A DNA stretch of 50,662 nt from Dehalococcoidales bacterium (GTDB taxonomy: Bacteria > Chloroflexota > Dehalococcoidia > Dehalococcoidales > CSSed11-197), in assembly GCA_028716145.1 (NCBI GenBank), contig JAQUQL010000002.1, positions 1 through 50,662 on the forward strand, written 5' to 3'. Shown here one piece after another: positions 1,795 through 12,999 of the stretch. Position 1 is the stretch's first letter. The number at the start of each line of letters is the position of its first letter. The notes below the pieces were generated by a model that saw only the letters and a list, made by a program, of their open reading frames with translations, searched no databases and had not been told where the DNA came from. The translations under genes and the position numbers were made by a program.

Positions 1795-2760
1795 TTAGCT
1801 TAAGAAATCAACTTCAAGGTACTTTTTGCGGTTTTTGCTTATAGCCATATTATAGATGGCTCTGGCAACTGCGATATCCTCAATAGCAATACCAGTCGAA
1901 TCAAATACTGTAATATCATTTTCGTTCAAGCGGCATCTCGCGCGCCCGGTAATACAATCACCAAGAGTTGCAGTAATGGTATCCGGCGAAATGTGACCTT
2001 GTTTGATTGGTACATTTATCTCCCCCGATTTGGATGCCTGTTCGATGTCATCAACCACCAGCCTGGCGTTTTTCAATATTTCTGTCTCAAGCTCCTGTTT
2101 GCCCGGGGCATCGGCGCCGATAGCGTTTATATGCGTACCTTTTTTTATCCAGTCAAGACGTACGATTGGTTTGGTGGCCGGGGTTGTAGTGCAGATAATT
2201 GCGCTGTCACAAACTTCTTCAATTGAACCGGAGCTTACTGGAAGGCCGGGGTAGCTTTGAACAAATGCCTGTGCTCTATCATTATCTATGTCATAAATCC
2301 TGATGTGTTTTAGATTAAATAATTCCATATGTGCCTGGAGCTGAGTGTGGGCTTGCCGCCCGGCACCTATCAAACCGAGAGAGTCTGCTCCCGGATTAGC
2401 CAGGCATCTCGATGCTATTGCCGAAGCTGCTCCGGTTCGGTACGCGGTAATTTCGCCGGCATCCATTATTGCCAGAGGGCAACCCGTCTCAGGATCGGAA
2501 TATATCAAAACAGCCATAACAGTTGGAAGGTTGATCTGCCAGTTTGCCGGGTGAACATTTACCCATTTAATCCCGCTGGCCCCAGAAAGGGCGGCAGGCA
2601 TTGCCCGGAAATCCCCCTTTTCAAGGGAGACATAAGACTTGGCGGGCATTTTGGCTGTACCGGCCGCCAATTCAATAAAAGCCACTTCCACTTCCTTTAT
2701 TACCAGCTTCATGCTTATCAGATCTAATACGTCTCCCTTGGTAAGAATAAGGGTTTTCAT
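1795..2760 (-). CDS. Ornithine cyclodeaminase / mu-crystallin family NAD-dependent enzyme (archaeal alanine-dehydrogenase-like)
   Basis: 321 aa with the Rossmann motif LGLIGAGRQA and family-typical blocks (FRAMPA, GIKWVNVHP, TGAASAIASR). An AGGAGA SD lies upstream. Confidence 0.8.
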   Translation of the reverse strand: MKTLILTKGDVLDLISMKLVIKEVEVAFIELAAGTAKMPAKSYVSLEKGDFRAMPAALSGASGIKWVNVHPANWQINLPTVMAVLIYSDPETGCPLAIMDAGEITAYRTGAASAIASRCLANPGADSLGLIGAGRQAHTQLQAHMELFNLKHIRIYDIDNDRAQAFVQSYPGLPVSSGSIEEVCDSAIICTTTPATKPIVRLDWIKKGTHINAIGADAPGKQELETEILKNARLVVDDIEQASKSGEINVPIKQGHISPDTITATLGDCITGRARCRLNENDITVFDSTGIAIEDIAVARAIYNMAISKNRKKYLEVDFLS

Positions 2761-2869
2761 CCGTTTCTCCTGTTCTCTCAGTGGCGTTCAAAGATTCCGT
2801 TAATACTATTCAGTTAGTTTAAACTTTTATGCCCATATCAGGCAACGGTTACGCAAAGTTAGAAAATAG

Positions 2870-2898
2870 AAAAGGCGCTGGATTTACCAGCGCCTTTT
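2870..2898 (-). terminator. Intrinsic terminator hairpin, usable on both strands
   Basis: aaaaggcgctgg-attta-ccagcgcctttt forms a 12-bp stem. It is flanked by an A-run on one side and a T-run on the other, and lies directly downstream of the 24-codon mini-ORF. Confidence 0.6.
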
Positions 2899-2921
2899 CT
2901 TGTCCTTGCCTTGTTATTATT

Positions 2922-2996
2922 CTACTTGCCCTTTGGTTTCGCTGGGGTAGATGCCGGTTTGGACGGAGTAGCTCCCGGTTTGGGTTTGTCTGCCAT
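2922..2996 (-). CDS. Candidate 24-aa Lys/Pro-rich small protein (MADKPKPGATPSKPASTPAKPKGK)
   Basis: ATG preceded by GGAGGTG (3004-3010) with a 9-nt spacer from GGAGG. A perfect TTGACA-17-TATAAT promoter lies upstream and a strong terminator downstream. Too short for the ORF track. Confidence 0.4.
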   Translation of the reverse strand: MADKPKPGATPSKPASTPAKPKGK

Positions 2997-3068
2997 TTTT
3001 CGTCACCTCCTTTTGGGGTGTTTGAAAAGTAACATTGAATAGAGCGAATGGTGTAATTTAATACAAGA

Positions 3069-3097
3069 ATTATAATTCATTAATAAATGATTGTCAA
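3069..3097 (-). promoter_or_regulatory. Consensus sigma70-type promoter (TTGACA-17 nt-TATAAT) driving the mini-ORF transcript
   Basis: The minus strand reads gtgTTGACAatcatttattaatgaatTATAATtcttg. Both hexamers are perfect and the spacer is 17 nt. Confidence 0.6.
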
Positions 3098-3201
3098 CAC
3101 CCTTCGAGGAAATATTTTTATGAAAATTTCATCAGAAACTCAAATTTGTAGGGATAGGCAAAACCAAGTGTAAAAACAGGCTTCTTCAGTTTGTAGTAAA
3201 A

Positions 3202-3229
3202 TTGACAGTGTAGAAACTGGGTATAAAAT
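3202..3229 (+). promoter_or_regulatory. Putative promoter of the archease-rtcB operon
   Basis: TTGACA (3202-3207), 16-nt spacer, TAAAAT (3224-3229), about 25 nt upstream of the archease ATG. Confidence 0.45.
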
Positions 3230-3254
3230 CAGGCTTATCCAAAAGTAACAGCAC

Positions 3255-3668
3255 ATGAGAAGCAAATACCGGGTATTAGAACACACGGCAGATGTTGGTC
3301 TTCTTGCCAGAGGAGATACTCTGGCTGAAGCGTTTACAAACGCCGGCCTGGGGATGTTTGCCATTATGGTAGATTTGAGAACAGTCCGCCCAAGCTCCGT
3401 GATATATGTCGATATTGTAGAAGAAACCCATGAAAGCCTGCTTTTTGAGTGGCTTAACCGCCTACTGTATTACTTTGATACACAAAACATACTTTTTAGA
3501 AAACTGGAAATCAGAACCTTTGAAAATTACCACATAACGGCTGTTTGCTATGGTGAAGTATACAACTCCCAGCGCCATGCTATAAAAACCGGGATAAAAT
3601 CTGCCACATTTCATCGTATAATGGTTGATGCTAAAACAAACCAGGTGCGAGTATTTCTGGATGTGTAG
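3255..3668 (+). CDS. Archease (RtcB activator)
   Basis: 137 aa. N-terminus RVLEHTADVGLLARGDTLAEAF matches the archease signature (EHTAD). Confidence 0.85.
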   Translation: MRSKYRVLEHTADVGLLARGDTLAEAFTNAGLGMFAIMVDLRTVRPSSVIYVDIVEETHESLLFEWLNRLLYYFDTQNILFRKLEIRTFENYHITAVCYGEVYNSQRHAIKTGIKSATFHRIMVDAKTNQVRVFLDV

Positions 3669-3676
3669 GGTGTAAG

Positions 3677-5134
3677 ATGAAAAAAACAGAAGGTTGTCTT
3701 GAGAAAATAGATGATTTCCGGTGGCGGTTACCCTCTCAATACCAGGCGGGCATGCGAGTGCCTGGTATTATATATGCCTCCCGGGAAATGCTGCCCCATA
3801 TAACCGGTGAAAATGTGCTTGGTCAGGTAGCAAATGTTGCCTGTTTGCCTGGTATAATCCGTGCTTCTATGGCAATGCCGGATGTACATTGGGGTTATGG
3901 CTTTCCAATCGGTGGAGTTGCAGCTATGGACTTTGAGAGTGGAGTAGTATCTCCTGGTGGCGTGGGGTTTGACATAAATTGTGGCGTCAGGCTGCTTGGC
4001 ACTGCTATGGATTACTCCTCTATTCAAAGTAGTCTTGAAGAACTGGTGGAGGAGATGTACAAGAGCATTCCGTCAGGTCTTGGTGTTTCTGGCAGTATCA
4101 GGCTGGGGAATAAGGACATGGAAAATGTATTGTCTCAAGGGGCGAGATGGGCGGTTGAGCAGGGGTACGGCAGGGCGGAAGACCTGAGTTTTATTGAGGA
4201 AAACGGTCAGATGAGCGAAGCTGATCCTTGGGCGATTGGTATGCGTGCCAGGGAAAGAGGCGCGTGCCAGCTTGGGACCCTTGGATCGGGGAACCATTTT
4301 GTTGAAATCGGGGTGGTGGACGCTATATACGAACCGGAAGCAGCCAGAGTGATGGGTATAAATATGGAAGGCCAGGTTCTTCTCTGGATACATACTGGAT
4401 CACGCGGATTAGGCCACCAGGTCGCTGATGATTACATAAAGTTAATGCTGGGGGCTATGACAGATTACAATATAAGTGTCCCTGACAGGCAACTGGCGTG
4501 TGCCCCGGTGAGATCAAAAGAAGGTCAGGGTTATCTTGGCGCAATGCGTAGCGCTGCTAATTTCGCCTGGGCAAACAGACAGGTAATTACCCACATGGCC
4601 AGGCAGGCGTTTATTTCAGTGCTTGGCATAAGCAGGGAAACGGCAGGATTGCAGATTATATATGATGTGAGTCATAACATTGCCAAGGTAGAGAATCATG
4701 TTTTGGAAGGTGTTGTTAAAAAGCTATGTGTTCACCGCAAGGGGGCAACCAGGGCTTTTCCTCCCCATCATCCAGATCTGCCGAAAAAATATGCCCACAT
4801 CGGCCAGCCTGTTTTGGTACCGGGTGATATGGGGCGCTATTCCTACATAATGGCGGGTACACAAAAAGCAATGGAAATGACTTTTGGTTCTGCCTGCCAT
4901 GGAGCCGGGAGGCTGAAAAGTCGCAAAGAGGCGAAGAGGGTTATCGATGGCAGAGAAGTTGTCAGGGAAATGGCCAGTCGTGGCATTATCGTTAGGGCAG
5001 GAAGCCTCTCTGCGATCGCGGAAGAAGCCTCCTTTGCCTATAAAGATGTAAGCGATGTGGCTGATGTTATCGCCCAGGCAGGACTAGCGCGGCCCATAGC
5101 AAGAACTCGGCCTGTTGGCGTTATTAAAGGTTAA
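3677..5134 (+). CDS. rtcB: RNA 3'-phosphate/2',3'-cyclic phosphate ligase RtcB
   Basis: 485 aa with RtcB blocks MPDVHWGYGFPIGGV, FDINCGVR, GSGNHFVEIG and SCHGAGR. Confidence 0.95.
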   Translation: MKKTEGCLEKIDDFRWRLPSQYQAGMRVPGIIYASREMLPHITGENVLGQVANVACLPGIIRASMAMPDVHWGYGFPIGGVAAMDFESGVVSPGGVGFDINCGVRLLGTAMDYSSIQSSLEELVEEMYKSIPSGLGVSGSIRLGNKDMENVLSQGARWAVEQGYGRAEDLSFIEENGQMSEADPWAIGMRARERGACQLGTLGSGNHFVEIGVVDAIYEPEAARVMGINMEGQVLLWIHTGSRGLGHQVADDYIKLMLGAMTDYNISVPDRQLACAPVRSKEGQGYLGAMRSAANFAWANRQVITHMARQAFISVLGISRETAGLQIIYDVSHNIAKVENHVLEGVVKKLCVHRKGATRAFPPHHPDLPKKYAHIGQPVLVPGDMGRYSYIMAGTQKAMEMTFGSACHGAGRLKSRKEAKRVIDGREVVREMASRGIIVRAGSLSAIAEEASFAYKDVSDVADVIAQAGLARPIARTRPVGVIKG

Positions 5135-5147
5135 TGGCAGGACGCAA

Positions 5148-6566
5148 ATGAGCAAGAAAGATATATATTCCGATGGTTTTTATAAAGTCCTGAGTTTTGC
5201 AGCATCAAACAGCAGCTTAAAAGAAAAGCTGAATTTCATGGTCAACACAACAGCTGAATTGGTTGGAGGTAGTGCTTCCCTGATTTTGTTGGATTCCTCT
5301 GGTAGCCAGTTGATACCAGCCGTAACCTGCAAGCTGCCAAAATTCTATATCCAAAAAGGATTACTGGATCGTTTCAAAAGCCTTGATGAGATCGATTCCG
5401 GGCGGGCAGTAATAATAAATAATGTAAATACGGATGAGCGGGTTCAGTTTAAGGATATTGCCAAAAAAGCCAGAATCACAGCCATCGCCGGGGCAGCAAT
5501 CAATATTGGGGGAAATCCGGCAGGCAGTTTACGTATTTATTTACGTGATAACCGGGTATTTTCGGGTGAAGATGTAGATTTAATCCAGCGAATGGCTGAG
5601 CTGGCAGCATTAACTATCGCCCAGCATCACCTGTGCCAGGTTGAAAATAGCAATAGGGGTTTTGAAGAATTACCCTCGGTCATCAGGCAGATCAGGGAAA
5701 CGGTATTTGCCCATCCCAGTGAGGCGGAATTTGCCAGCCTGCTCGATTTTTATAATATAGAATGGGTTTATGAACCCCGCTCCTTCGTTTTGAACCAGGA
5801 TGGGAATCGGGTTACTGAAATGTTTAGCCCAGATTTTTATCTACCGGGTCTTGATCTTTACGTAGAAATCACTACTCTCAAACAAAGCCTGATAACCTAT
5901 AAAAACCGCAAGCTTCGCCGTTTGAGAGAGCTGTATCCGGAGATAAAAATCATCCTGATCAACAAAAACAATTATGACCGGCTTTTGTCAAAATACGGAG
6001 CAGGGCCGCTGGGGCAAGCCAGGGCGCACGGTATCCGAAAAATACTCTATTCTGCTGAAAAGATAAAAGAAAGGGTAGATGAGCTGGCCGCACAAATATC
6101 TGCTGACTACGAAGGGAAATGCCCGGTGTTGCTTGGAGTTCAGCGTGGGTTCATTTGTTTTATGGCCGACCTCATACGCCAGATAAGCGTTCCTATGGAT
6201 ATGGATTTTATGGCGATAAACCGATACAGAAAAGACAGCTTAAGCAGGCTTTCGATAACCAAGGATGCAGATTTGGATATAAGCGGAAGGCATGTGTTGC
6301 TGGTTGAAGATATAGTTGATACCGGCATGACCCTAAGTTCAATTTTGGATTACCTCAAGAGCCGCAAGCCTGCCAGCCTGGAAGTATGTACGCTGCTGAA
6401 CAGAAAAGCTCGCAGATTGATGGAAGTAGATATCCGTTATTGGGGATTTGAAATACCAGACGAGTTTGTTGTTGGTTATGGCCTGGACTATCGGGAAGAA
6501 TACCGCAATTTGCCATTTATAGGTGTCCCAATAATACTTGATGAAAAGAAAGAGCCGGTTAGCTGA
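5148..6566 (+). CDS. Three-domain fusion: GAF-like sensor + PD-(D/E)xK-like middle domain + hypoxanthine/guanine phosphoribosyltransferase
   Basis: The C-terminus carries canonical HPRT motifs (VLLVEDIVDTGMTL, VVGYGLDYRE). The N-terminal ~170 aa are GAF-like. The middle ~100 aa contain FSPDFYLPGLDLYVEITTLK. The ATG at 5148 lies 14 nt after the rtcB stop; an alternative TTG at 5115 overlaps rtcB. Confidence 0.75.
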   Translation: MSKKDIYSDGFYKVLSFAASNSSLKEKLNFMVNTTAELVGGSASLILLDSSGSQLIPAVTCKLPKFYIQKGLLDRFKSLDEIDSGRAVIINNVNTDERVQFKDIAKKARITAIAGAAINIGGNPAGSLRIYLRDNRVFSGEDVDLIQRMAELAALTIAQHHLCQVENSNRGFEELPSVIRQIRETVFAHPSEAEFASLLDFYNIEWVYEPRSFVLNQDGNRVTEMFSPDFYLPGLDLYVEITTLKQSLITYKNRKLRRLRELYPEIKIILINKNNYDRLLSKYGAGPLGQARAHGIRKILYSAEKIKERVDELAAQISADYEGKCPVLLGVQRGFICFMADLIRQISVPMDMDFMAINRYRKDSLSRLSITKDADLDISGRHVLLVEDIVDTGMTLSSILDYLKSRKPASLEVCTLLNRKARRLMEVDIRYWGFEIPDEFVVGYGLDYREEYRNLPFIGVPIILDEKKEPVS

Positions 6567-6698
6567 AAAAAAAGACGCTCCAAGTAACCTTTGCCTTTTA
6601 GGCTGAATCAACCAGGTGACCTTTTCAGAACCACGGTTGTGATACCTACTCAGGGTGCTCCCTGATTTGATGGCCTCAACTGCCCGGCTACTTGGAGC
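6566..6698 (-). ncRNA. Candidate ~130-nt structured sRNA of unknown family
   Basis: The promoter at 6705-6733 predicts +1 at 6698. The first 13 nt (GCUCCAAGUAGCC) pair with nt 110-122 of the RNA (GGUUACUUGGAGC, one G-U). There is an internal hairpin UCAGGG-AGCA-CCCUGA, and the RNA ends in U8 (plus-strand A-run 6566-6573). Confidence 0.4.
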
Positions 6699-6704
6699 AT
6701 CGTC

Positions 6705-6733
6705 AGTATCTCACAACCCATTAGCAGTGTCAA
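6705..6733 (-). promoter_or_regulatory. Putative promoter of the candidate sRNA
   Basis: The minus strand reads TTGACA-ctgctaatgggttgTGa-GATACT: a perfect -35, a 17-nt spacer and an extended -10 TGn. Confidence 0.45.
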
Positions 6734-6961
6734 AACGGTTTGCAGCTGTTTTTGTTTTATCAGAGTCTTTAAGAGCAGATTGATGTGCCTGAAAAATCGA
6801 TTTATCTCTGCAAATCTTAAAAAATCTTGGCTAGTCGGGCAGGTGAGGGCAGGACCCTGTCGCAGTAAATAAAGTTAACATAATATTAGAAAGAAAGACT
6901 CATGGGTGAATGTTTGGTGTTTACAGCAGGTCAAAACATTCTAAAGAGAGAGGGTAAAGAG

Positions 6962-7038
6962 TGGCGACCCCGAGGGGATTTGAACCCCTGATCTCCACCG
7001 TGACAGGGTGGCATGTTAGACCGCTACACCACGGGGCC
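6962..7038 (-). tRNA. tRNA-Asp (anticodon GUC)
   Basis: 77-nt cloverleaf. Acceptor GGCCCCG/CGGGGTC, anticodon stem CCACC/GGTGG with loop CTGTCAC, T arm AGGGG-TTCAAAT-CCCCT. CCA is encoded. Confidence 0.9.
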
Positions 7039-7108
7039 ACGCTTAACGCTATTGAAGTGTATCAAGAACCGCGAAGAATTGTCAACCAAAAAATATTAAG
7101 GCGGAACA

Positions 7109-7864
7109 CTACTTGTAAAACAGGTTTAGGCTGCTCACCAGACTGTTATTTTTGGCAATCCAAAATCTTCTGCCGCCAAGGTGTATGTTGTCCCAGGTAT
7201 TGACTACCGGTGTTTCGCTATACTGCACAACCGGGCCATGTTCTTCTTTCCAATCGTAGCGATATTCGCTCCAGCTTTCTTCCAGGTTCAGGTCGCTGTC
7301 GTCGTAACGATGGTAATCGGCACCCATCTCCTCAAAAATGCTTTCTATGTTTGAGCCGGAAACCAGGGTGCCGGTTCCGGAATAGGGTCCGTATAATTCA
7401 CTTGGATATTCAGGTTCTACTATCTTGCATTCAAAAGGGTTTGAATACCGGGCAACAGCGGTTTCGAGAGCAACATATTTAGTGTGCTGAATAGTGGTGC
7501 GAAGGTCTCTTTCCCAGTTATCAAGATTGTATAAAAGGCCGAAATGCAAAATCAGGTCGAACCTCTGGCTTAATATCCAGGGTTTTTCCTGATCAAGCAA
7601 TAACACCCGGGCATCCTGGTCTTTCTTTTTAACCATGTCCAGGGAATCCTGGCGCGCATCAGCGAAAGTAACATCTGCTCCCAGGCTCCTCAGATATAGC
7701 CCGATATTACCGAATCCGCAAGCCACCTCGAGAACATTTTTATTTTTAAACCACTCCCGCGAGAATATGTGCTCGAGCTTTTTAACTCTTTTTACCCGCC
7801 AGTCGTTAAAAACTCCACCAAAAAGCTCGTTTTCTTCATAAAGCAGGGATTCGTCTGCATACAT
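7109..7864 (-). CDS. Class I SAM-dependent methyltransferase
   Basis: 251 aa. Motif I VLEVACGFGNIGLYL and post-I acidic residue (VTFADA). The C-terminal ~90 aa are not assignable. Confidence 0.7.
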   Translation of the reverse strand: MYADESLLYEENELFGGVFNDWRVKRVKKLEHIFSREWFKNKNVLEVACGFGNIGLYLRSLGADVTFADARQDSLDMVKKKDQDARVLLLDQEKPWILSQRFDLILHFGLLYNLDNWERDLRTTIQHTKYVALETAVARYSNPFECKIVEPEYPSELYGPYSGTGTLVSGSNIESIFEEMGADYHRYDDSDLNLEESWSEYRYDWKEEHGPVVQYSETPVVNTWDNIHLGGRRFWIAKNNSLVSSLNLFYK

Positions 7865-8138: not shown

Positions 8139-8489
8139 GTGGCAGTTAAAGAAAGTAGCAAGAAACCGGAAGTAACAAATACTCAAGCTGTTGAAGTCGA
8201 GAATCACGATTACGAAATGGTCGTGGTATTTAGACTGGCAGCGTCCGATCCGGAAAACGAAAAGGCTGTTGAGAATCTTAAACAGATGATCGAAGGCCTT
8301 GGCGGTAGTATTAAGCAGGTTGAACCCTGGGGCAAAAAGAAGCTGGCTTATCCTATCGCTCATTTAAACGAAGGGTATTATGTTCTAACAAAGTTTAATT
8401 TGGACCCTGGTAAAACCCTGGAGATAGAAAACAAACTGAGGATTAACGAGCAGGTGCTTCGCCACCTTCTGGTTATTGATGAGGATTAG
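8139..8489 (+). CDS. rpsF: 30S ribosomal protein bS6
   Basis: 116 aa, GTG start with a GAGG SD. YEMVVVF...KQVEPWGKKKLAYPI matches the S6 core, and the position upstream of ssb-rpsR is conserved. Confidence 0.9.
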   Translation: MAVKESSKKPEVTNTQAVEVENHDYEMVVVFRLAASDPENEKAVENLKQMIEGLGGSIKQVEPWGKKKLAYPIAHLNEGYYVLTKFNLDPGKTLEIENKLRINEQVLRHLLVIDED

Positions 8490-8507
8490 TTCAGAGGAGA
8501 GCGCATA

Positions 8508-8915
8508 ATGGTAAGTTTGAATAAGATTATGTTGATTGGCAATGTAGGCAGCGATCCCGAGATGCGTTTTATAGCAAATGGCAATCCGGTGACATCATTC
8601 AGAGTGGCAACCAATCGTATTTATACTACTCCGGAAGGGGAGCGCAAGCAGGAAACAGACTGGTTCAGCGTGGTAACCTGGAACAAGTTGGCTGAACAGT
8701 GCAACCAGTTTCTTGCCAAAGGCCGCCTTGTATATGTTGAGGGCAGGCTTCATAACAGGAGCTGGGAAGGCCAGGACGGCCAGAAAAGAACCCGGACCGA
8801 GGTAATTGCCAGCCGTGTTACATTTCTTGATCGCCAGGCTCAGGGCGGAAGCGAAGAAAAAGCGGATGACATTTATAACGACGAACTTACCCCTGACGAT
8901 ATTCCCTTCAGTTAA
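8508..8915 (+). CDS. ssb: Single-stranded DNA-binding protein
   Basis: 135 aa OB-fold N-terminus (LNKIMLIGNVGSDPEMRF) and an acidic C-terminal tail ending DDIPFS. Confidence 0.92.
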   Translation: MVSLNKIMLIGNVGSDPEMRFIANGNPVTSFRVATNRIYTTPEGERKQETDWFSVVTWNKLAEQCNQFLAKGRLVYVEGRLHNRSWEGQDGQKRTRTEVIASRVTFLDRQAQGGSEEKADDIYNDELTPDDIPFS

Positions 8916-8985
8916 GGCGGGCGTGAAACAGCGCACATAATATACTTTTTCGTAAACTATTTTTATAAGGAGATATGAAATACCT

Positions 8986-9477
8986 GTGGCAAGAGAAACA
9001 ACCACGAAACCCAAAGGTAGAACTGGTGGCAGATGGGGCGGTAACAAATTTGTTGCCAGAAGAAAAGTTTGTACCTTTTGTGCAAACAAAAGCACTCGGA
9101 TAGATTATAAGGACGTAAACCTGCTGGGGCGTTACCTTACCGATAGGGCAAAGATCCTCCCCAGAAGGCGTACCGGTAATTGTGCCAGGCATCAGAGAGC
9201 TCTTGCAGCGGCAATTAAAAGGGCGCGCTATCTGGCCCTTCTGCCATACACTGCTGAGCATATTTATGAAATGGGCGCAACCTATGAAATAAGCCGGCCG
9301 CATTATCGCAAGGAATATCATAAACCGGCTGTAGAAGCGGCGGCACCAGCTGAAGATGCAACCAAAACGGCCGAAGCTGCAGTTGAAAACACAGAGGCCG
9401 AAAACACAGAGGCCGAAAAGGCTGTAGCGGAAGTAAATGCAGAGGAAGCTATCCCTGCCAAAACTGACGAAGAATAG
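8986..9477 (+). CDS. rpsR: 30S ribosomal protein bS18 with N- and C-terminal extensions
   Basis: Core [60 protein letters not shown]. 163 aa in total, with an Ala/Glu-rich tail. Confidence 0.9.
9385..9420 (+). repeat. Tandem 15-bp direct repeat (about 2.4 copies) inside the rpsR tail
   Basis: gaaaacacagaggcc occurs at 9385-9399 and 9400-9414, then a partial gaaaag. It encodes [12 protein letters not shown]. Confidence 0.85.
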
Positions 9478-9515
9478 TAAGCATCAGCATTTTTCTTAAA
9501 TAATGAGGAGTTATT

Positions 9516-9656
9516 GTGCCTAAAAGAACATATCAACCGAAGAAAATTCCCAGAAAACGTGAGCACGGTTTTCTGGCTCGAATGAGTACCCGTGGAGGGC
9601 GTGCGGTTTTAAAAGCAAGACGCTTGAAGGGGCGGAAGCGGCTTACCGTTGTGTAA
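9516..9656 (+). CDS. rpmH: 50S ribosomal protein bL34
   Basis: Not in the ORF track (46 aa). GTG start with a GAGGAG SD. Translation is [46 protein letters not shown]. Confidence 0.92.
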
Positions 9657-9670
9657 GGTAGGATCGAGTG

Positions 9671-9704
9671 AAGCCGGTTACCGGAACAATTCCGGCGCCG
9701 GCTT
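9671..9704 (+). other. Bipartite GC-rich hairpin between rpmH and rnpA
   Basis: Outer stem aagccgg/ccggctt and inner stem ccggaa-caa-ttccgg. There is no U-run, so it is more likely a processing or translation-control structure than a terminator. Confidence 0.3.
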
Positions 9705-9719
9705 AACCTTTCTAAATCA

Positions 9720-10046
9720 GTGAAAGGACAGCAGTACCTAAGAGATACAAGAGAATACAGCCGAGTTCATCAGCAGGGGGCAGTTTACCGGCGACGGGGG
9801 CTGAATCTAAAGGTGGCCGGCAATGACATGGATTATTCTAGGTGGGGCCTGGTAGTGAGTAAAAAAGTCGGCTCAGCCGTGGTTAGAAACAGGGTTAAGC
9901 GAGTACTCAGGGAAATACTCAGGCAAACAGATTTAAAGCCAGGCTGGGATATCGTGATAGTAACCCGTCCCTATATAAACAGCATGAATTACGAGGAAAT
10001 TAAAAGCCAGGTGAATGCTATGCTGAAAGAAGCTGGCCTGATTTAG
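9720..10046 (+). CDS. rnpA: Ribonuclease P protein component
   Basis: 108 aa with the RNR motif region VSKKVGSAVVRNRVKRVLRE. Position after rpmH is conserved. Confidence 0.88.
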   Translation: MKGQQYLRDTREYSRVHQQGAVYRRRGLNLKVAGNDMDYSRWGLVVSKKVGSAVVRNRVKRVLREILRQTDLKPGWDIVIVTRPYINSMNYEEIKSQVNAMLKEAGLI

Positions 10047-10061
10047 GGAAAGTGGGAAGAA

Positions 10062-10283
10062 ATGAAAACTTTTTCAATGGCCTTGATACGCTTCTATCAG
10101 AAACATATTTCATCTGTTTTGCCTTCTTCATGTCGTTATACGCCAACCTGTTCTCAATATACTTATGAAGCGATAAACCGCTTCGGAGTTGTCAAGGGAA
10201 CTTGGATGGGGATCAAGCGAATTTGCCGCTGCCATCCCTTTAATCCGGGAGGGTATGATCCTGTTCCGGAGCGAAACCAGTAA
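10062..10283 (+). CDS. yidD: Membrane protein insertion efficiency factor YidD
   Basis: 73 aa. [28 protein letters not shown]...[11 protein letters not shown].. is the YidD signature. Confidence 0.9.
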
Positions 10284-10303
10284 TCATACACTAAGGAAGA
10301 ACG

Positions 10304-11449
10304 GTGCATAATAATAAACGAACCTTAAAAGTAATTCTATTAACGTCGCTGCTGGCGCTGGGGCTAATCGTGTCTGGCTGTGTTGGTATGGGAACAGCTC
10401 AGTCAGGCTGGTCTGGCGTTGTTGCTGGCAGCCAGTCTGTGTATCTGGGCTCTGGTGCCGGAAAACTTGTAGCACTGAATTCTGATAATGGTTTTTACCA
10501 GTGGCAGGAAGATTTGGAAGCGTCTGCGGCAGGGGGAGGGCTCGGTTGCGCCGGGGCTTCTGCTGCTGTAGTGTATTCCACGCCTGTGCTGTATGGTGAG
10601 ACCGTTTACATCGGGGATGGCGGAGGCAGATTATATGCTTTCAATGTTAATGACCGCCAGTCAAAGAATGTAGTTTTGAATACAGGTAAGTCCGGCGCTA
10701 TTATTGGAAGTCCGCTTATCGCTCATGAAAGTGTATATGTTGGATCTACTGATGGAAATCTTTATGCCTACGATGCTGCATCGCTCACTTATAGGTGGCA
10801 ATACAACACCGGTGGTGAAATATGGGCTGCTCCGGCAGTGTGGGGAAATAGTATTTTTGCAGCGTCTTTTGACAAAAAACTATACTCGATTGATGCTGAA
10901 AGCGGGCAGTCCAACTGGGATGAGCCGTTCGAAACCAATGGACCGATAATCGCTTCTCCATTAGTATACGGTGATGTTGTAATCATAGCATCCCTAGATC
11001 GGCATGTTTATGCAGTTGATGCAGAAACAGGGGAGCTTGTATGGAGCTACCCGGCCGGTGATAATGATGAAAATGCTCCAAAACGGTGGCTTTGGGCTAC
11101 TCCGGTAACTGGTGATGGGAAGATATATATACCCGGCATGGACGGAAAAGTATATGTTATTGAGGCCAGTGCCGGTGGGCTGGAAGGAATTATTGAAATT
11201 GGCGAATCTGTTGCTTCCACTCCAGTATTTGCCGGTAACAGACTGGTTCTTGCAACCGAAAGCGGCAAGATATATTCCGTTGACACGGATAATTATCAGA
11301 AGATAGAGCTCAGAAATATTGACACAGAGCTGTCATCTCCGCTGGGGGTTGATGGCCAAATTGTCTTCGTACATTCCGTGAAAGGTAACACTGTTTATGC
11401 CATCAACGGTGAAACCGGGGCTTTGTTGTGGTCAACATCTTTGAATTAG
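10304..11449 (+). CDS. PQQ-like (BamB-type) beta-propeller repeat lipoprotein
   Basis: 381 aa, GTG start. Signal peptide with lipobox VSGC. Repeated G.LYA.D...G...W blades. Confidence 0.75.
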   Translation: MHNNKRTLKVILLTSLLALGLIVSGCVGMGTAQSGWSGVVAGSQSVYLGSGAGKLVALNSDNGFYQWQEDLEASAAGGGLGCAGASAAVVYSTPVLYGETVYIGDGGGRLYAFNVNDRQSKNVVLNTGKSGAIIGSPLIAHESVYVGSTDGNLYAYDAASLTYRWQYNTGGEIWAAPAVWGNSIFAASFDKKLYSIDAESGQSNWDEPFETNGPIIASPLVYGDVVIIASLDRHVYAVDAETGELVWSYPAGDNDENAPKRWLWATPVTGDGKIYIPGMDGKVYVIEASAGGLEGIIEIGESVASTPVFAGNRLVLATESGKIYSVDTDNYQKIELRNIDTELSSPLGVDGQIVFVHSVKGNTVYAINGETGALLWSTSLN

Positions 11450-11477
11450 TAACGCAAAATTGTGAGGTAGCTGTCAG

Positions 11478-12464
11478 TTGGATATAGGAGCAATTTGGGA
11501 CATTATCATCCTCAAACCGATGATAAACAGCATGATATCGCTTTCCCAGGTTTTGTGGGGAAGCTTTGGGCTGACTATCATTATATTGACATTAATCGTT
11601 CGGGGAGTGATGTACCCCCTGACCATCAAACAGTTAAGAGCATCGAAAGCTATGCAGTCTTTGCAGCCAAAGCTGGCTGCACTGCAAAAGAAGCACGGTG
11701 CGGATAAAGAAAAACTTGCCCAGGAACAGATGCGTCTTTACAAGGAGTCTGGCGTCAGCCCGTCCGGGTGTCTGCTGCCGATGCTCATCCAGATGCCAAT
11801 CTGGATCGCTCTTTATCAGGCGATAATCAGGGTTATGGCGGTTAACCCGGAGAGCTTCCTGAACCTGTCCCACTACCTTTACTCCTGGCCGATAGTGTAT
11901 GAAGCTTTACCTTTAAATAACCATTTTCTGTGGCTGAATCTGGCAACACCTGACTATTTGCTGGCAATACTGGTAGGACTCTCCATGTTCATTCAGCAAA
12001 AAATGACCCAGGCACCGGTAACAGCCGGAGCATCACCTGCACAATCACAGGCTCAAAGCATGACGGTTATGATGCCGCTCATGTTTACCTTCCTGTCAAT
12101 GTCATTCCCAAGCGGGCTGGCTTTATACTGGGTTACCTCTAATATACTCAGTTTCGTTATGCAGTATTTTATTACCGGATGGGGCGGGCTGGAGCCGATG
12201 AAAAACCGTCTGATAGAACGTATTTCGGGTCTGTTATCCCGTAAAAAATTTAACGATGTAACAACCCGCGTTATACATTCTGGCGATAAGACTGCGCCTG
12301 ATGTAACATCAGGGGAAGATGATGTCCTGATAGGTGATCTGAAAAACGATAATGGGAAAGATGAAGATGGGCTTGCGGCTGATCAAGCGACCATAGCAAA
12401 AAAGCCAGGTAAAGATAAAAGCAAGTCCCAGGCAAAAAAAGGTAAACGAAGCAAACGCAAATAA
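11478..12464 (+). CDS. yidC: Membrane protein insertase YidC (short Gram-positive-like form with a Lys-rich tail)
   Basis: 328 aa, TTG start. Blocks PLTIKQLRASKAMQSLQPK, GCLPMLIQMPIWIALY and SGLALYWVTSN. Confidence 0.9.
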   Translation: MDIGAIWDIIILKPMINSMISLSQVLWGSFGLTIIILTLIVRGVMYPLTIKQLRASKAMQSLQPKLAALQKKHGADKEKLAQEQMRLYKESGVSPSGCLLPMLIQMPIWIALYQAIIRVMAVNPESFLNLSHYLYSWPIVYEALPLNNHFLWLNLATPDYLLAILVGLSMFIQQKMTQAPVTAGASPAQSQAQSMTVMMPLMFTFLSMSFPSGLALYWVTSNILSFVMQYFITGWGGLEPMKNRLIERISGLLSRKKFNDVTTRVIHSGDKTAPDVTSGEDDVLIGDLKNDNGKDEDGLAADQATIAKKPGKDKSKSQAKKGKRSKRK

Positions 12465-12492
12465 AGGTCTAGAAAGCAGGAGGCAGGAACTC

Positions 12493-12999
12493 GTGGCTGA
12501 AGAGATAACAATCAACGAACAACTAATCATAGATATCCAGAGCATTATCGAAGAACTGCTGGATAAAATGGGAATAGTGGCTGCGGCTGAATATAAAGAA
12601 GACGCGGTTGTACAGGAAGTTGAGAGAACGCCAAAACCTCTGCTTTTTGATATAGATTGTGCTAATCCCGGAATACTTATTGGCCGTGGTGGCCAAACGT
12701 TGGATAGCCTTCAATACCTTTTGCGTACCATGGTAAGTCATATACTCAAGGAAGAGATTCCGCCGATCGTTATTGACGTAAGCGGGTACAAGCAACGACG
12801 CTTTAAATATCTGAAAGAAATGGCTGCCAAAGTAGCCAACCAGGTTGCTGAAACTGGTCAACCGCTTACGCTTGAGCCAATGTCAGCATATGAAAGGCGC
12901 ATCATTCACACTGCACTTAATGATGATGAACGTGTTATTACCGAAAGCACTGGCTTTGAAGAAAGCCGCAAAGTGGTGATCAAGCCCTCAAACTACTAG
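12493..12999 (+). CDS. khpB: Jag/KhpB-type RNA-binding protein (KH + R3H domains)
   Basis: 168 aa, GTG start with an AGGAGG SD. GILIGRGGQTLDSLQYL (KH) and ERRIIHTALNDD (R3H). Position after yidC is conserved. Confidence 0.85.
   Translation: MAEEITINEQLIIDIQSIIEELLDKMGIVAAAEYKEDAVVQEVERTPKPLLFDIDCANPGILIGRGGQTLDSLQYLLRTMVSHILKEEIPPIVIDVSGYKQRRFKYLKEMAAKVANQVAETGQPLTLEPMSAYERRIIHTALNDDERVITESTGFEESRKVVIKPSNY

Follow-up and report, generated by a model that had tools for sequence, protein, structure and literature searches.

Hypoxanthine/guanine phosphoribosyltransferase (HPRT) is a central enzyme of purine salvage and a textbook case of an enzyme controlled by (p)ppGpp, and the Dehalococcoidia are bacteria with organohalide-respiring members that have tiny genomes. 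In a stretch of 50,662 nt from a Dehalococcoidales bacterium (GenBank assembly GCA_028716145.1, contig JAQUQL010000002.1, positions 1 to 50,662 of the forward strand; this whole stretch is referred to as the window) an HPRT forms the C-terminal end of a much longer protein, in which it is preceded by a GAF domain and a nuclease-like domain, and the gene for this fusion is located directly behind the genes for archease and the RNA ligase RtcB. The locus raises the question whether the fusion belongs to RNA repair, as was proposed in a first-pass annotation of the DNA, or whether it is the ordinary hpt gene of its lineage, and which role a nuclease fold could play in such an enzyme. The explanation favoured here is a housekeeping hpt of the Dehalococcoidia lineage that has been extended by a ligand sensor and by an obligate, probably non-nucleolytic partner module; its probability is estimated at about 0.55, a joint figure for the clade-typical hpt gene and for the regulatory-subunit mechanism. 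Taken by itself, the view that the fusion is a clade-typical hpt gene without a dedicated RtcB function is highly probable, and the regulatory-subunit mechanism specifically is put forward as a tentative proposal at somewhat below even odds.

Domain composition of the fusion protein

The fusion gene is located at positions 5148-6566 on the plus strand and encodes a protein of 472 aa from ATG 5148 (open reading frame (ORF) call, Pfam/NCBIfam, P0001). Two start codons come into question, TTG 5115, which overlaps rtcB, and ATG 5148, and the ORF ends at 6566 with either of them. ATG 5148 is the likely start, because a 100%-identical database protein (P0001) has a length of 472 aa and the N-termini of homologues align there. 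Residues are numbered below either from TTG 5115 (TTG) or from ATG 5148 (ATG; 11 lower).

The C-terminal part (6042-6527, plus strand, TTG residues 310-471) passed the cutoff of the HGPRTase equivalog family TIGR01203 with 188.6 bits (cutoff 150). The first-pass annotation had described a full HPRT with an intact phosphoribosyl pyrophosphate (PRPP) loop, and this description held: the loop VLLVEDIVDTGMTL is located at TTG residues 394-407, both the loop and the purine segment DEFVVGYGLDY align with the HGPRT of Thermoanaerobacter tengcongensis (1R3U/1YFZ), and EDIVDTG and FVVGYGLDY are intact. The similarity to 1r3u extends end-to-end over the C-terminal 170 residues (E = 1.3e-50, approximately 50% identity). 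Unlike 1R3U, the fusion carries about 295 extra N-terminal residues, which comprise the GAF and the nuclease-like domain, and where 1R3U has the 6-oxopurine-binding Lys of its TILDK segment, the window protein has Arg (TLLNR); across the clade this position holds either Arg or Lys. With the full-length model as the query, Foldseek matched HPRTs only. By these motifs the C-terminal domain is classified as a bona fide HPRT, which is predicted to be catalytically intact.

At the N-terminus, the earlier assignment of a GAF domain was likewise supported (5214-5618, plus strand, TTG residues 34-168), since the Pfam gathering thresholds for GAF_2 and GAF were both exceeded (PF13185, 33.1 bits, cutoff 28.6; PF01590, 28.6 bits, cutoff 22.4). 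In NCBIfam the N-terminus of the fusion gave a weak match to the GAF region of NifA. The blocks of the AlphaFold2 (AF2) model over this region had a mean predicted local distance difference test score (pLDDT) of 81-95, with one block at 67, and the GAF part is predicted to fold with confidence. A sequence search against the PDB gave no solved relative of the GAF part and hence no clue to its ligand.

The middle part (5706-6017, plus strand, ATG residues 187-290) is a T7-endonuclease-I-like domain of the PD-(D/E)xK fold with an ELTT/EITT signature, termed EndoIL in the following. The window domain had no Pfam or NCBIfam match of its own, and a search of the PDB with the single sequence gave nothing usable; a profile search and the PHROGs were needed for its identification. 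It matched PHROG families of endonucleases and Holliday-junction resolvases (1.4e-8, 1.8e-5 and 3.6e-4), and a profile of 30 domain sequences (alignment A2), compared with all solved structures, matched T7 endonuclease I only (3cae, 1.5e-4; 2pfj, 1m0d, 1fzr). Phage_endo_I (PF05367) was the sole Pfam family to recur when 30 relatives were compared, 12 of which matched it at E <= 1 and the best of which reached 4.3e-6. The score of P0175 against this family was 16.7 bits, and the window domain did not reach the threshold of 29.1 bits and gave no match even at E <= 10.

The pLDDT of the AF2 models was 75 for the full-length protein and 79.6 for the domain alone, with 85-94 in its core. Compared with the PDB by Foldseek, the EndoIL model gave weak matches to PD-(D/E)xK nucleases (best 2.5e-3), which indicate the fold class and not a specific family, and compared with phage models it matched 'Endonuclease I' at 5.7e-7 (TM 0.63, 30% identity), with 59 matches at E <= 1e-3. 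The secondary structure of the AF2 model and the Foldseek results agree with the core topology of endonuclease I. Profile, AF2 and Foldseek thus settle a doubt that had been raised together with the first-pass annotation: the middle domain is a divergent relative of T7 endonuclease I and has a nuclease fold rather than being a linker. It is related to the T7 endonuclease I family, yet it is not a member of it, because the Pfam threshold was failed and the catalytic Lys is missing. In a 34-sequence alignment (A1), EndoIL was the best-conserved segment of the whole protein.

Active site of the nuclease-like domain

A D...E.K motif of the restriction-endonuclease fold had been noted in this region before. 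The fold and the place of the motif were both borne out, the segment FSPDFYLPGLDLYVEITTLK being located at TTG residues 237-256, and the Lys was not, since its position is taken by Thr253 in the sequence E-I-T. In the HMMER alignment with T7 endonuclease I, its E20 falls on the Glu in PSE, D55 on the Asp in PDF, E65 on the Glu in (V/I)E(L/I)TT, and K67 on the first Thr. In the window the helix-1 Glu is E203 TTG / E192 ATG (5721-5723, plus strand; invariant in A1 and A2), the Asp of the PDF motif is D240 TTG / D229 ATG (5832-5834, plus strand), and E251 and T253 TTG (5865-5873, plus strand) align with E65-x-K67, with Thr in place of Lys. From the catalytic tetrad E20/D55/E65/K67 the three carboxylates are therefore kept and the Lys is not. 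The likeness to T7 endonuclease I (gp3, a Holliday-junction resolvase, PF05367; 1M0D, 2PFJ, 3CAE) extends beyond these three residues to the basic helix after strand 3, a ...YP... segment and the core topology. The differences are the Thr at the Lys67 position, the failure of the window domain to reach a Pfam threshold, and the cellular occurrence of EndoIL, always paired with HPRT.

Conservation was counted in 150 family representatives clustered at 50% identity, of which 138 contained the core motif and 122 were matched by the helix-1 motif. The PDF Asp and the strand-3 Glu were present in 138/138, and the canonical Lys position was occupied by Thr in 137 and by Ala in one. The second Thr was kept in 133 and the following Gln in 128 of these 138 representatives. 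The helix-1 Glu was found in 115/122, and a His stood directly before it in 107/122. KNRK in the following helix is almost invariant, and in A1 and A2 the second core helix has K252, N253 and K255 without exception.

A scan of viral contigs showed that EndoIL is essentially absent from them. The sole viral-contig relative is not accompanied by HPRT and keeps the canonical ExK (YIEIKG). This observation would fit a Lys-to-Thr exchange that is derived and has become fixed in the cellular family. The viral protein possibly resembles the form from which the cellular ELTT family descended. It is encoded at positions 2137-2679 of L174 (IMGVR_UViG_3300032118_000240), has a length of 180 aa and is located between a portal-like and a head-morphogenesis-like gene; its Lys/Gly-rich N-terminus is putatively NUMOD-like (by eye) and is followed by the canonical PDF...YIEIKG.

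Migration of the Lys into the second core helix is known within the superfamily for Pa4535 (PMC3424549). Because of this precedent, and because Lys residues are invariant in the second core helix of EndoIL, its site is described as non-canonical rather than dead; a catalytically dead EndoIL was considered and not adopted on account of the documented migration. An EndoIL that serves as the Holliday-junction resolvase of the lineage was set aside given the Lys-to-Thr exchange and the strict coupling to HPRT, the presence of RuvC or RecU not having been checked in these genomes.

Association of EndoIL with HPRT across bacteria

The domain alone was searched against 1.84 billion representatives, which resulted in 1761 matches (50%-identity clusters), 805 of them at E <= 1e-10, and a second database contained 4669 proteins with EndoIL. 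Four architectures were found: standalone EndoIL (111-230 aa), Cytidylate_kin2 (PF13189) followed by EndoIL (approximately 310-410 aa), EndoIL followed by HPRT (approximately 330-340 aa), and the GAF, EndoIL and HPRT combination of the window protein. For standalone EndoIL, a phosphoribosyltransferase (PRT) gene came next on the same strand in 4/4 independent contexts, with distances from a one-base overlap to a gap of 38 nt, and in one split EndoIL/HPRT pair stop and start codon overlap as TGATG. For the kinase-like fusions, 80 loci were obtained from a metagenome scan, and the 62 with at least 700 nt of downstream sequence were counted: all 62 were followed by an HPRT gene on the same strand, 59 of them within 400 nt, two overlapping and one at 784 nt. 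All ten partner genes tested against TIGR01203 scored above the cutoff. In a census of the neighbours of the kinase-EndoIL and HPRT pairs nothing further was conserved, neither tilS nor ftsH, and the EndoIL-HPRT pair occurred without rtcB in 66/66 contexts examined.

From these architectures, the essentially universal adjacency on the same strand with occasional translational coupling, and the lack of any other conserved gene nearby, the conserved unit appears to be EndoIL plus HPRT, preceded by nothing, by GAF or by a kinase-like domain, and the window protein would represent its fully fused Dehalococcoidia form. EndoIL is accordingly regarded, by sequence comparison, as an ancient and obligate partner of HPRT. 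In Chloroflexota, Armatimonadota and uncultured bacteria of soils and sediments it is part of the same polypeptide as HPRT or the product of a gene immediately before the HPRT gene. Across phyla the nuclease-like domain thus goes with HPRT itself and not with RNA repair.

Two observations concern the joint between the domains. At L085/L086 (5001-5941) the 'standalone' EndoIL P0278 ends in residues that resemble an HPRT start (KGIDRVL); the HPRT tblastn match lies in a different frame and shares 18 nt with the end of P0278, and the PRT gene called there encodes only 142 aa. In a subset of the loci with kinase-like fusions (L093-L098, L101, L105, L107, L110 and L127) the HPRT match begins 220-390 nt past the EndoIL match, compared with 20-100 nt elsewhere, and these long spacers could be due to a C-terminal tail, to a longer N-terminus of HPRT or to a small ORF.

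The proteins themselves are known in databases as HPRT, and the kinship of Chloroflexi members with a nuclease fold is implicit in the 2012 census of the PD-(D/E)XK superfamily, which grouped Dehalococcoides and Thermomicrobium sequences under Phage_endo_I and mentioned no PRT partner (PMC3424549). This listing was the nearest description found in the literature, and none of the EndoIL-HPRT pairing was found. As far as the literature found is concerned, the obligate partnership is new, and so are its signature of Thr in place of Lys and the exchange of GAF for kinase-like modules at the front end.

Many standalone EndoIL proteins of 115-190 aa bear the name 'hypoxanthine phosphoribosyltransferase' in JGI or NCBI although a PRT domain is lacking (P0272, P0127, P0280, P0295, P0336 and others), and many full-length fusions are named 'bifunctional protein TilS/HprT' without having a TilS domain (P0004, P0005 and others). 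Such names are a systematic annotation transfer error. The problem concerns thousands of standalone EndoIL proteins that are labelled with one or the other name and have neither domain. The JGI label TilS/HprT was also rejected for the window fusion as a mis-transfer from its HPRT part, since no TilS family was matched in Pfam or NCBIfam.

Distribution of the three-domain protein and its relation to rtcB

The best 120 database matches of the window protein were all full-length (446-515 aa), and 119 of them had both the GAF and the PRT domain; where names were given, these were HPRT from Dehalococcoidia, Dehalococcoidales, Dehalococcoidaceae or Chloroflexota, or 'TilS/HprT'. In a scan with one genome per GTDB species, relatives were found in 369 species genomes. 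The best 80 of these 369 were all full-length, showed 46-75% identity and all belonged to Dehalococcoidia/Chloroflexota.

In the window, the archease gene (3255-3668, plus strand, 137 aa; PF01951, E = 1.6e-37 over the full length), the RtcB gene (3677-5134, plus strand, 485 aa; PF01139, E = 1.3e-169 over the full length) and the fusion ORF are arranged head-to-tail, all on the plus strand. The order given in the first-pass annotation, archease and RtcB followed by an ORF of about 470 aa, was confirmed with 472 aa from ATG 5148 and a spacer of 13 nt (5135-5147, plus strand). The rtcB stop ends at 5134, and the spacer contains a Shine-Dalgarno-like AGGA at 5139-5142, located 5 nt before ATG 5148. 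A pattern scan for a separate promoter or terminator, which would have disconnected the fusion from rtcB, detected no terminator-like or strong promoter-like site in the 13-nt gap. Co-transcription of archease, rtcB and the fusion gene in the source organism is plausible, because the gap is so short and lacks such sites.

Directly upstream of relatives of the fusion gene, archease-rtcB was found by tblastn only in L172 (79%), L003/L004 (65%), L006 (64%) and L007 (58%). L172 is syntenic with the window over 13 kb, and the RtcB proteins upstream of the fusion in the nearest relatives are 61-66% identical to the window RtcB. Among 57 genome loci with at least 2 kb of upstream sequence, rtcB was absent within 6 kb of the fusion gene at 56. 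Three genome loci have the fusion gene after thrS-infC-rpmI-rplT, two of them in the megabase-scale assemblies L001 and L002, and in a 56% relative the gene stands alone behind approximately 700 nt of non-coding DNA. A census by clustering of flanking ORFs revealed no conserved neighbour, tilS and ftsH included, at most 7/80 loci sharing one. Judged from gene order, the rtcB adjacency appears to be a lineage-specific operon arrangement of one small clade. The proposal of a cassette for RNA repair or with toxin-like function was not supported by this survey: the three-domain protein is widespread in Dehalococcoidia as the ordinary hpt of the clade, its linkage to rtcB is not conserved, and rtcB accompanies it only at identities of at least 58%.

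Proposed function and rival explanations

In the mechanism that is proposed for the favoured explanation, EndoIL and HPRT would form a physical complex. EndoIL, which would be descended from an obligately dimeric junction resolvase, would serve as a metal- or phosphate-binding platform for regulation or assembly and would no longer act as a junction-resolving nuclease, and HPRT activity would be tuned via EndoIL by an interchangeable ligand-binding module at the N-terminus, which is GAF in the window protein and a kinase-like P-loop domain in others. In the source organism and its close relatives, the gene has come to lie 13 nt behind archease-rtcB and is probably co-transcribed with it. Several points weigh against this explanation. 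The evidence for a regulatory role consists of gene fusion and adjacency, and the view that the gene is the sole housekeeping hpt is drawn from its ubiquity and context. The invariant Glu/Asp/Glu together with a fixed, non-drifting Thr argue for a working metal site, and a non-canonical hydrolytic activity is conceivable in view of the Lys migration in Pa4535 and the invariant K252/K255 in the second core helix. L085/L086, counted among the four 'standalone' cases, probably represents an EndoIL-HPRT fusion with a frameshift. A functional coupling to rtcB that is specific for the clade is also conceivable, as the tight spacing between rtcB and the fusion gene is kept down to 58% identity.

The metal site is an argument for an EndoIL that is an active, non-canonical phosphodiesterase or nuclease, in which a helix-2 Lys (K252/K255) or the FAH His would replace the strand-3 Lys and the reaction would be coupled to purine salvage, e.g. 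on RNA or DNA ends or on a nucleotide-like small molecule. Its three ligands do not vary among hundreds of clusters at 50% identity, Thr is fixed and does not drift, K252, N253 and K255 are kept throughout in the second core helix, to which the Lys is known to have migrated elsewhere in the superfamily (PMC3424549), most representatives (107/122) carry the His just before the helix-1 Glu, and the partner domains HPRT and the kinase-like domain are both nucleotide enzymes. Nevertheless this explanation is doubtful. The equivalent Lys belongs to the catalytic tetrad of T7 endonuclease I, where it is essential, and the helix is basic in T7 endonuclease I as well, so that it need not be catalytic. 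Furthermore, no nucleotidase, nucleosidase or other salvage step that could link a nuclease product to a free base is conserved nearby, and the domain is not strongly basic overall (median isoelectric point 8.4; window domain 6.8). Similarly doubtful is the idea that the ELTT-type EndoIL constitutes an unrecognised 'two-component HPRT', as a catalytic or allosteric subunit with a re-engineered Glu/Asp/Glu plus Thr metal site. The subunit could act on a nucleotide-related substrate by a phosphodiester or pyrophosphate reaction that is new, or bind four-way-junction-like RNA such as tRNA. If true, purine salvage would be linked to signalling by nucleic acids or nucleotides in Chloroflexota, Armatimonadota and many uncultured bacteria of soils and sediments, and GAF or kinase-like modules would be sensors that can replace one another.

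Unlikely is a moonlighting regulator of purine genes in the manner of PurR or PyrR, with a catalytically altered nuclease fold as the part that would bind DNA or structured RNA and the PRT domain as the sensor of PRPP or guanine nucleotides. PRT-fold proteins with nucleic-acid-binding functions exist in B. subtilis PurR and PyrR. The catalytic Lys of EndoIL is missing, the basic helix KNRKLRRLR is conserved, and inactive PD-(D/E)xK homologues that serve in DNA binding have been noted (PMC3424549). On the other hand, the HPRT part of the fusion reaches a full equivalog score with intact catalytic motifs, a full metal triad is not expected in a pure binding domain, and the census of neighbours gave no conserved target genes, no operator or RNA motif having been sought. 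The least probable explanation, with very little left to recommend it, is a dedicated RNA damage/repair or toxin-like cassette of archease, RtcB and the fusion, in which the nuclease fold would cut RNA or DNA and HPRT would supply guanine nucleotide to RtcB. RtcB does use GTP, the 13-nt gap in the window is free of a terminator, and the same tight order is kept in five loci of the clade with at least 58% identity. The synteny survey has largely refuted it, with no rtcB within 6 kb at 56/57 other species loci and none in the 66 contexts of the EndoIL-HPRT pair; in addition, the canonical catalytic Lys is absent, the flanking genes are housekeeping genes and no defence or toxin family was matched. 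In PADLOC-DB the full protein gave no match and the domain matched generic PD-DEXK segments only marginally (E ~1e-3), and the identity as a defence system was rejected since these matches are marginal and generic.

Under the favoured explanation of a regulated housekeeping hpt, a whole bacterial class and many uncultured lineages would never encode HPRT alone and would pair it with a nuclease-fold partner that is more conserved than HPRT itself. The pairing points to an unrecognised layer of regulation or chemistry in purine salvage, and the adjacency to rtcB should not be taken as a sign of a repair or toxin cassette.

Comparison with known systems

The fusion resembles the TilS/HprT bifunctional proteins and the tilS-hpt pair (K15780) in that HPRT carries or follows an N-terminal module related to nucleic acids. 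Unlike these, it contains no TilS domain according to Pfam and NCBIfam, and its N-terminal modules are GAF and EndoIL. GAF-regulated enzymes and regulators include the phosphodiesterases of cyclic nucleoside monophosphates, cyanobacterial adenylate cyclases and regulators of the NifA/FhlA type. The fusion shares with these the order of a GAF domain at the N-terminus and a catalytic output behind it. Its output, however, is a PRT enzyme that is reached through a nuclease-fold domain. The B. subtilis repressor PurR combines a winged helix with a catalytically inactive PRT fold, PyrR likewise is a PRT-fold protein with nucleic-acid binding, and PRPP or nucleotides act as effectors. The fusion shares with both the connection of a PRT fold to a putative nucleic-acid-binding capacity. 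In contrast to PurR, its PRT domain is by sequence a bona fide HPRT, and the partner has a PD-(D/E)xK fold instead of a winged helix.

Genomic context and further observations

Upstream of archease, a sigma-70-like promoter candidate (TTGACA-16-TAAAAT, 11/12) is located at 3202-3229 on the plus strand; it is the best plus-strand match within 2700-7300 in a consensus scan and represents a pattern match only. Within the window, no second copy of HPRT or EndoIL was found, and an Rfam scan identified tRNAs only. Downstream of the fusion gene no terminator-like site was detected, and approximately 395 nt without an ORF or Rfam match (6567-6961) separate its stop codon from a tRNA-Asp gene on the minus strand (6962-7038).

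Further downstream, at 8139-12464, rpsF-ssb-rpsR, rnpA, a yidD-like gene, a PQQ-like beta-propeller gene and yidC follow. The synteny of this housekeeping cluster with L172 speaks for an ordinary chromosomal setting of the fusion gene. A methyltransferase gene and rpsF-ssb-rpsR occupy the region of the window downstream of the fusion where L003 (Ga0068713_1000377) has phage-like genes; from 10144-10911 onwards L003 contains weak matches to SU10 major capsid/GP7, an AAA_25 gene and ORFans, and this region may be a prophage, or an element that has integrated close to the site of tRNA-Asp.

Two other genomes show additional features. In the metagenome-assembled genome JBGOWL01 (isolate OBJ_0618_130150_93; L053 and L068), two distinct full-length GAF-EndoIL-HPRT genes with 49% and 51% identity to the window protein are located on separate contigs, which reflects either paralogues or a mixed bin. 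In L173 (DAOUMC010000017.1), a 56% relative, a xanthine-dehydrogenase-like cluster (Ald_Xan_dh_C/MoCoBD, FAD_binding_5, Fer2) is located at 8720-12631 on the opposite strand, approximately 1.3 kb downstream of the fusion gene, and this single case is possibly a neighbourhood of purine catabolism.

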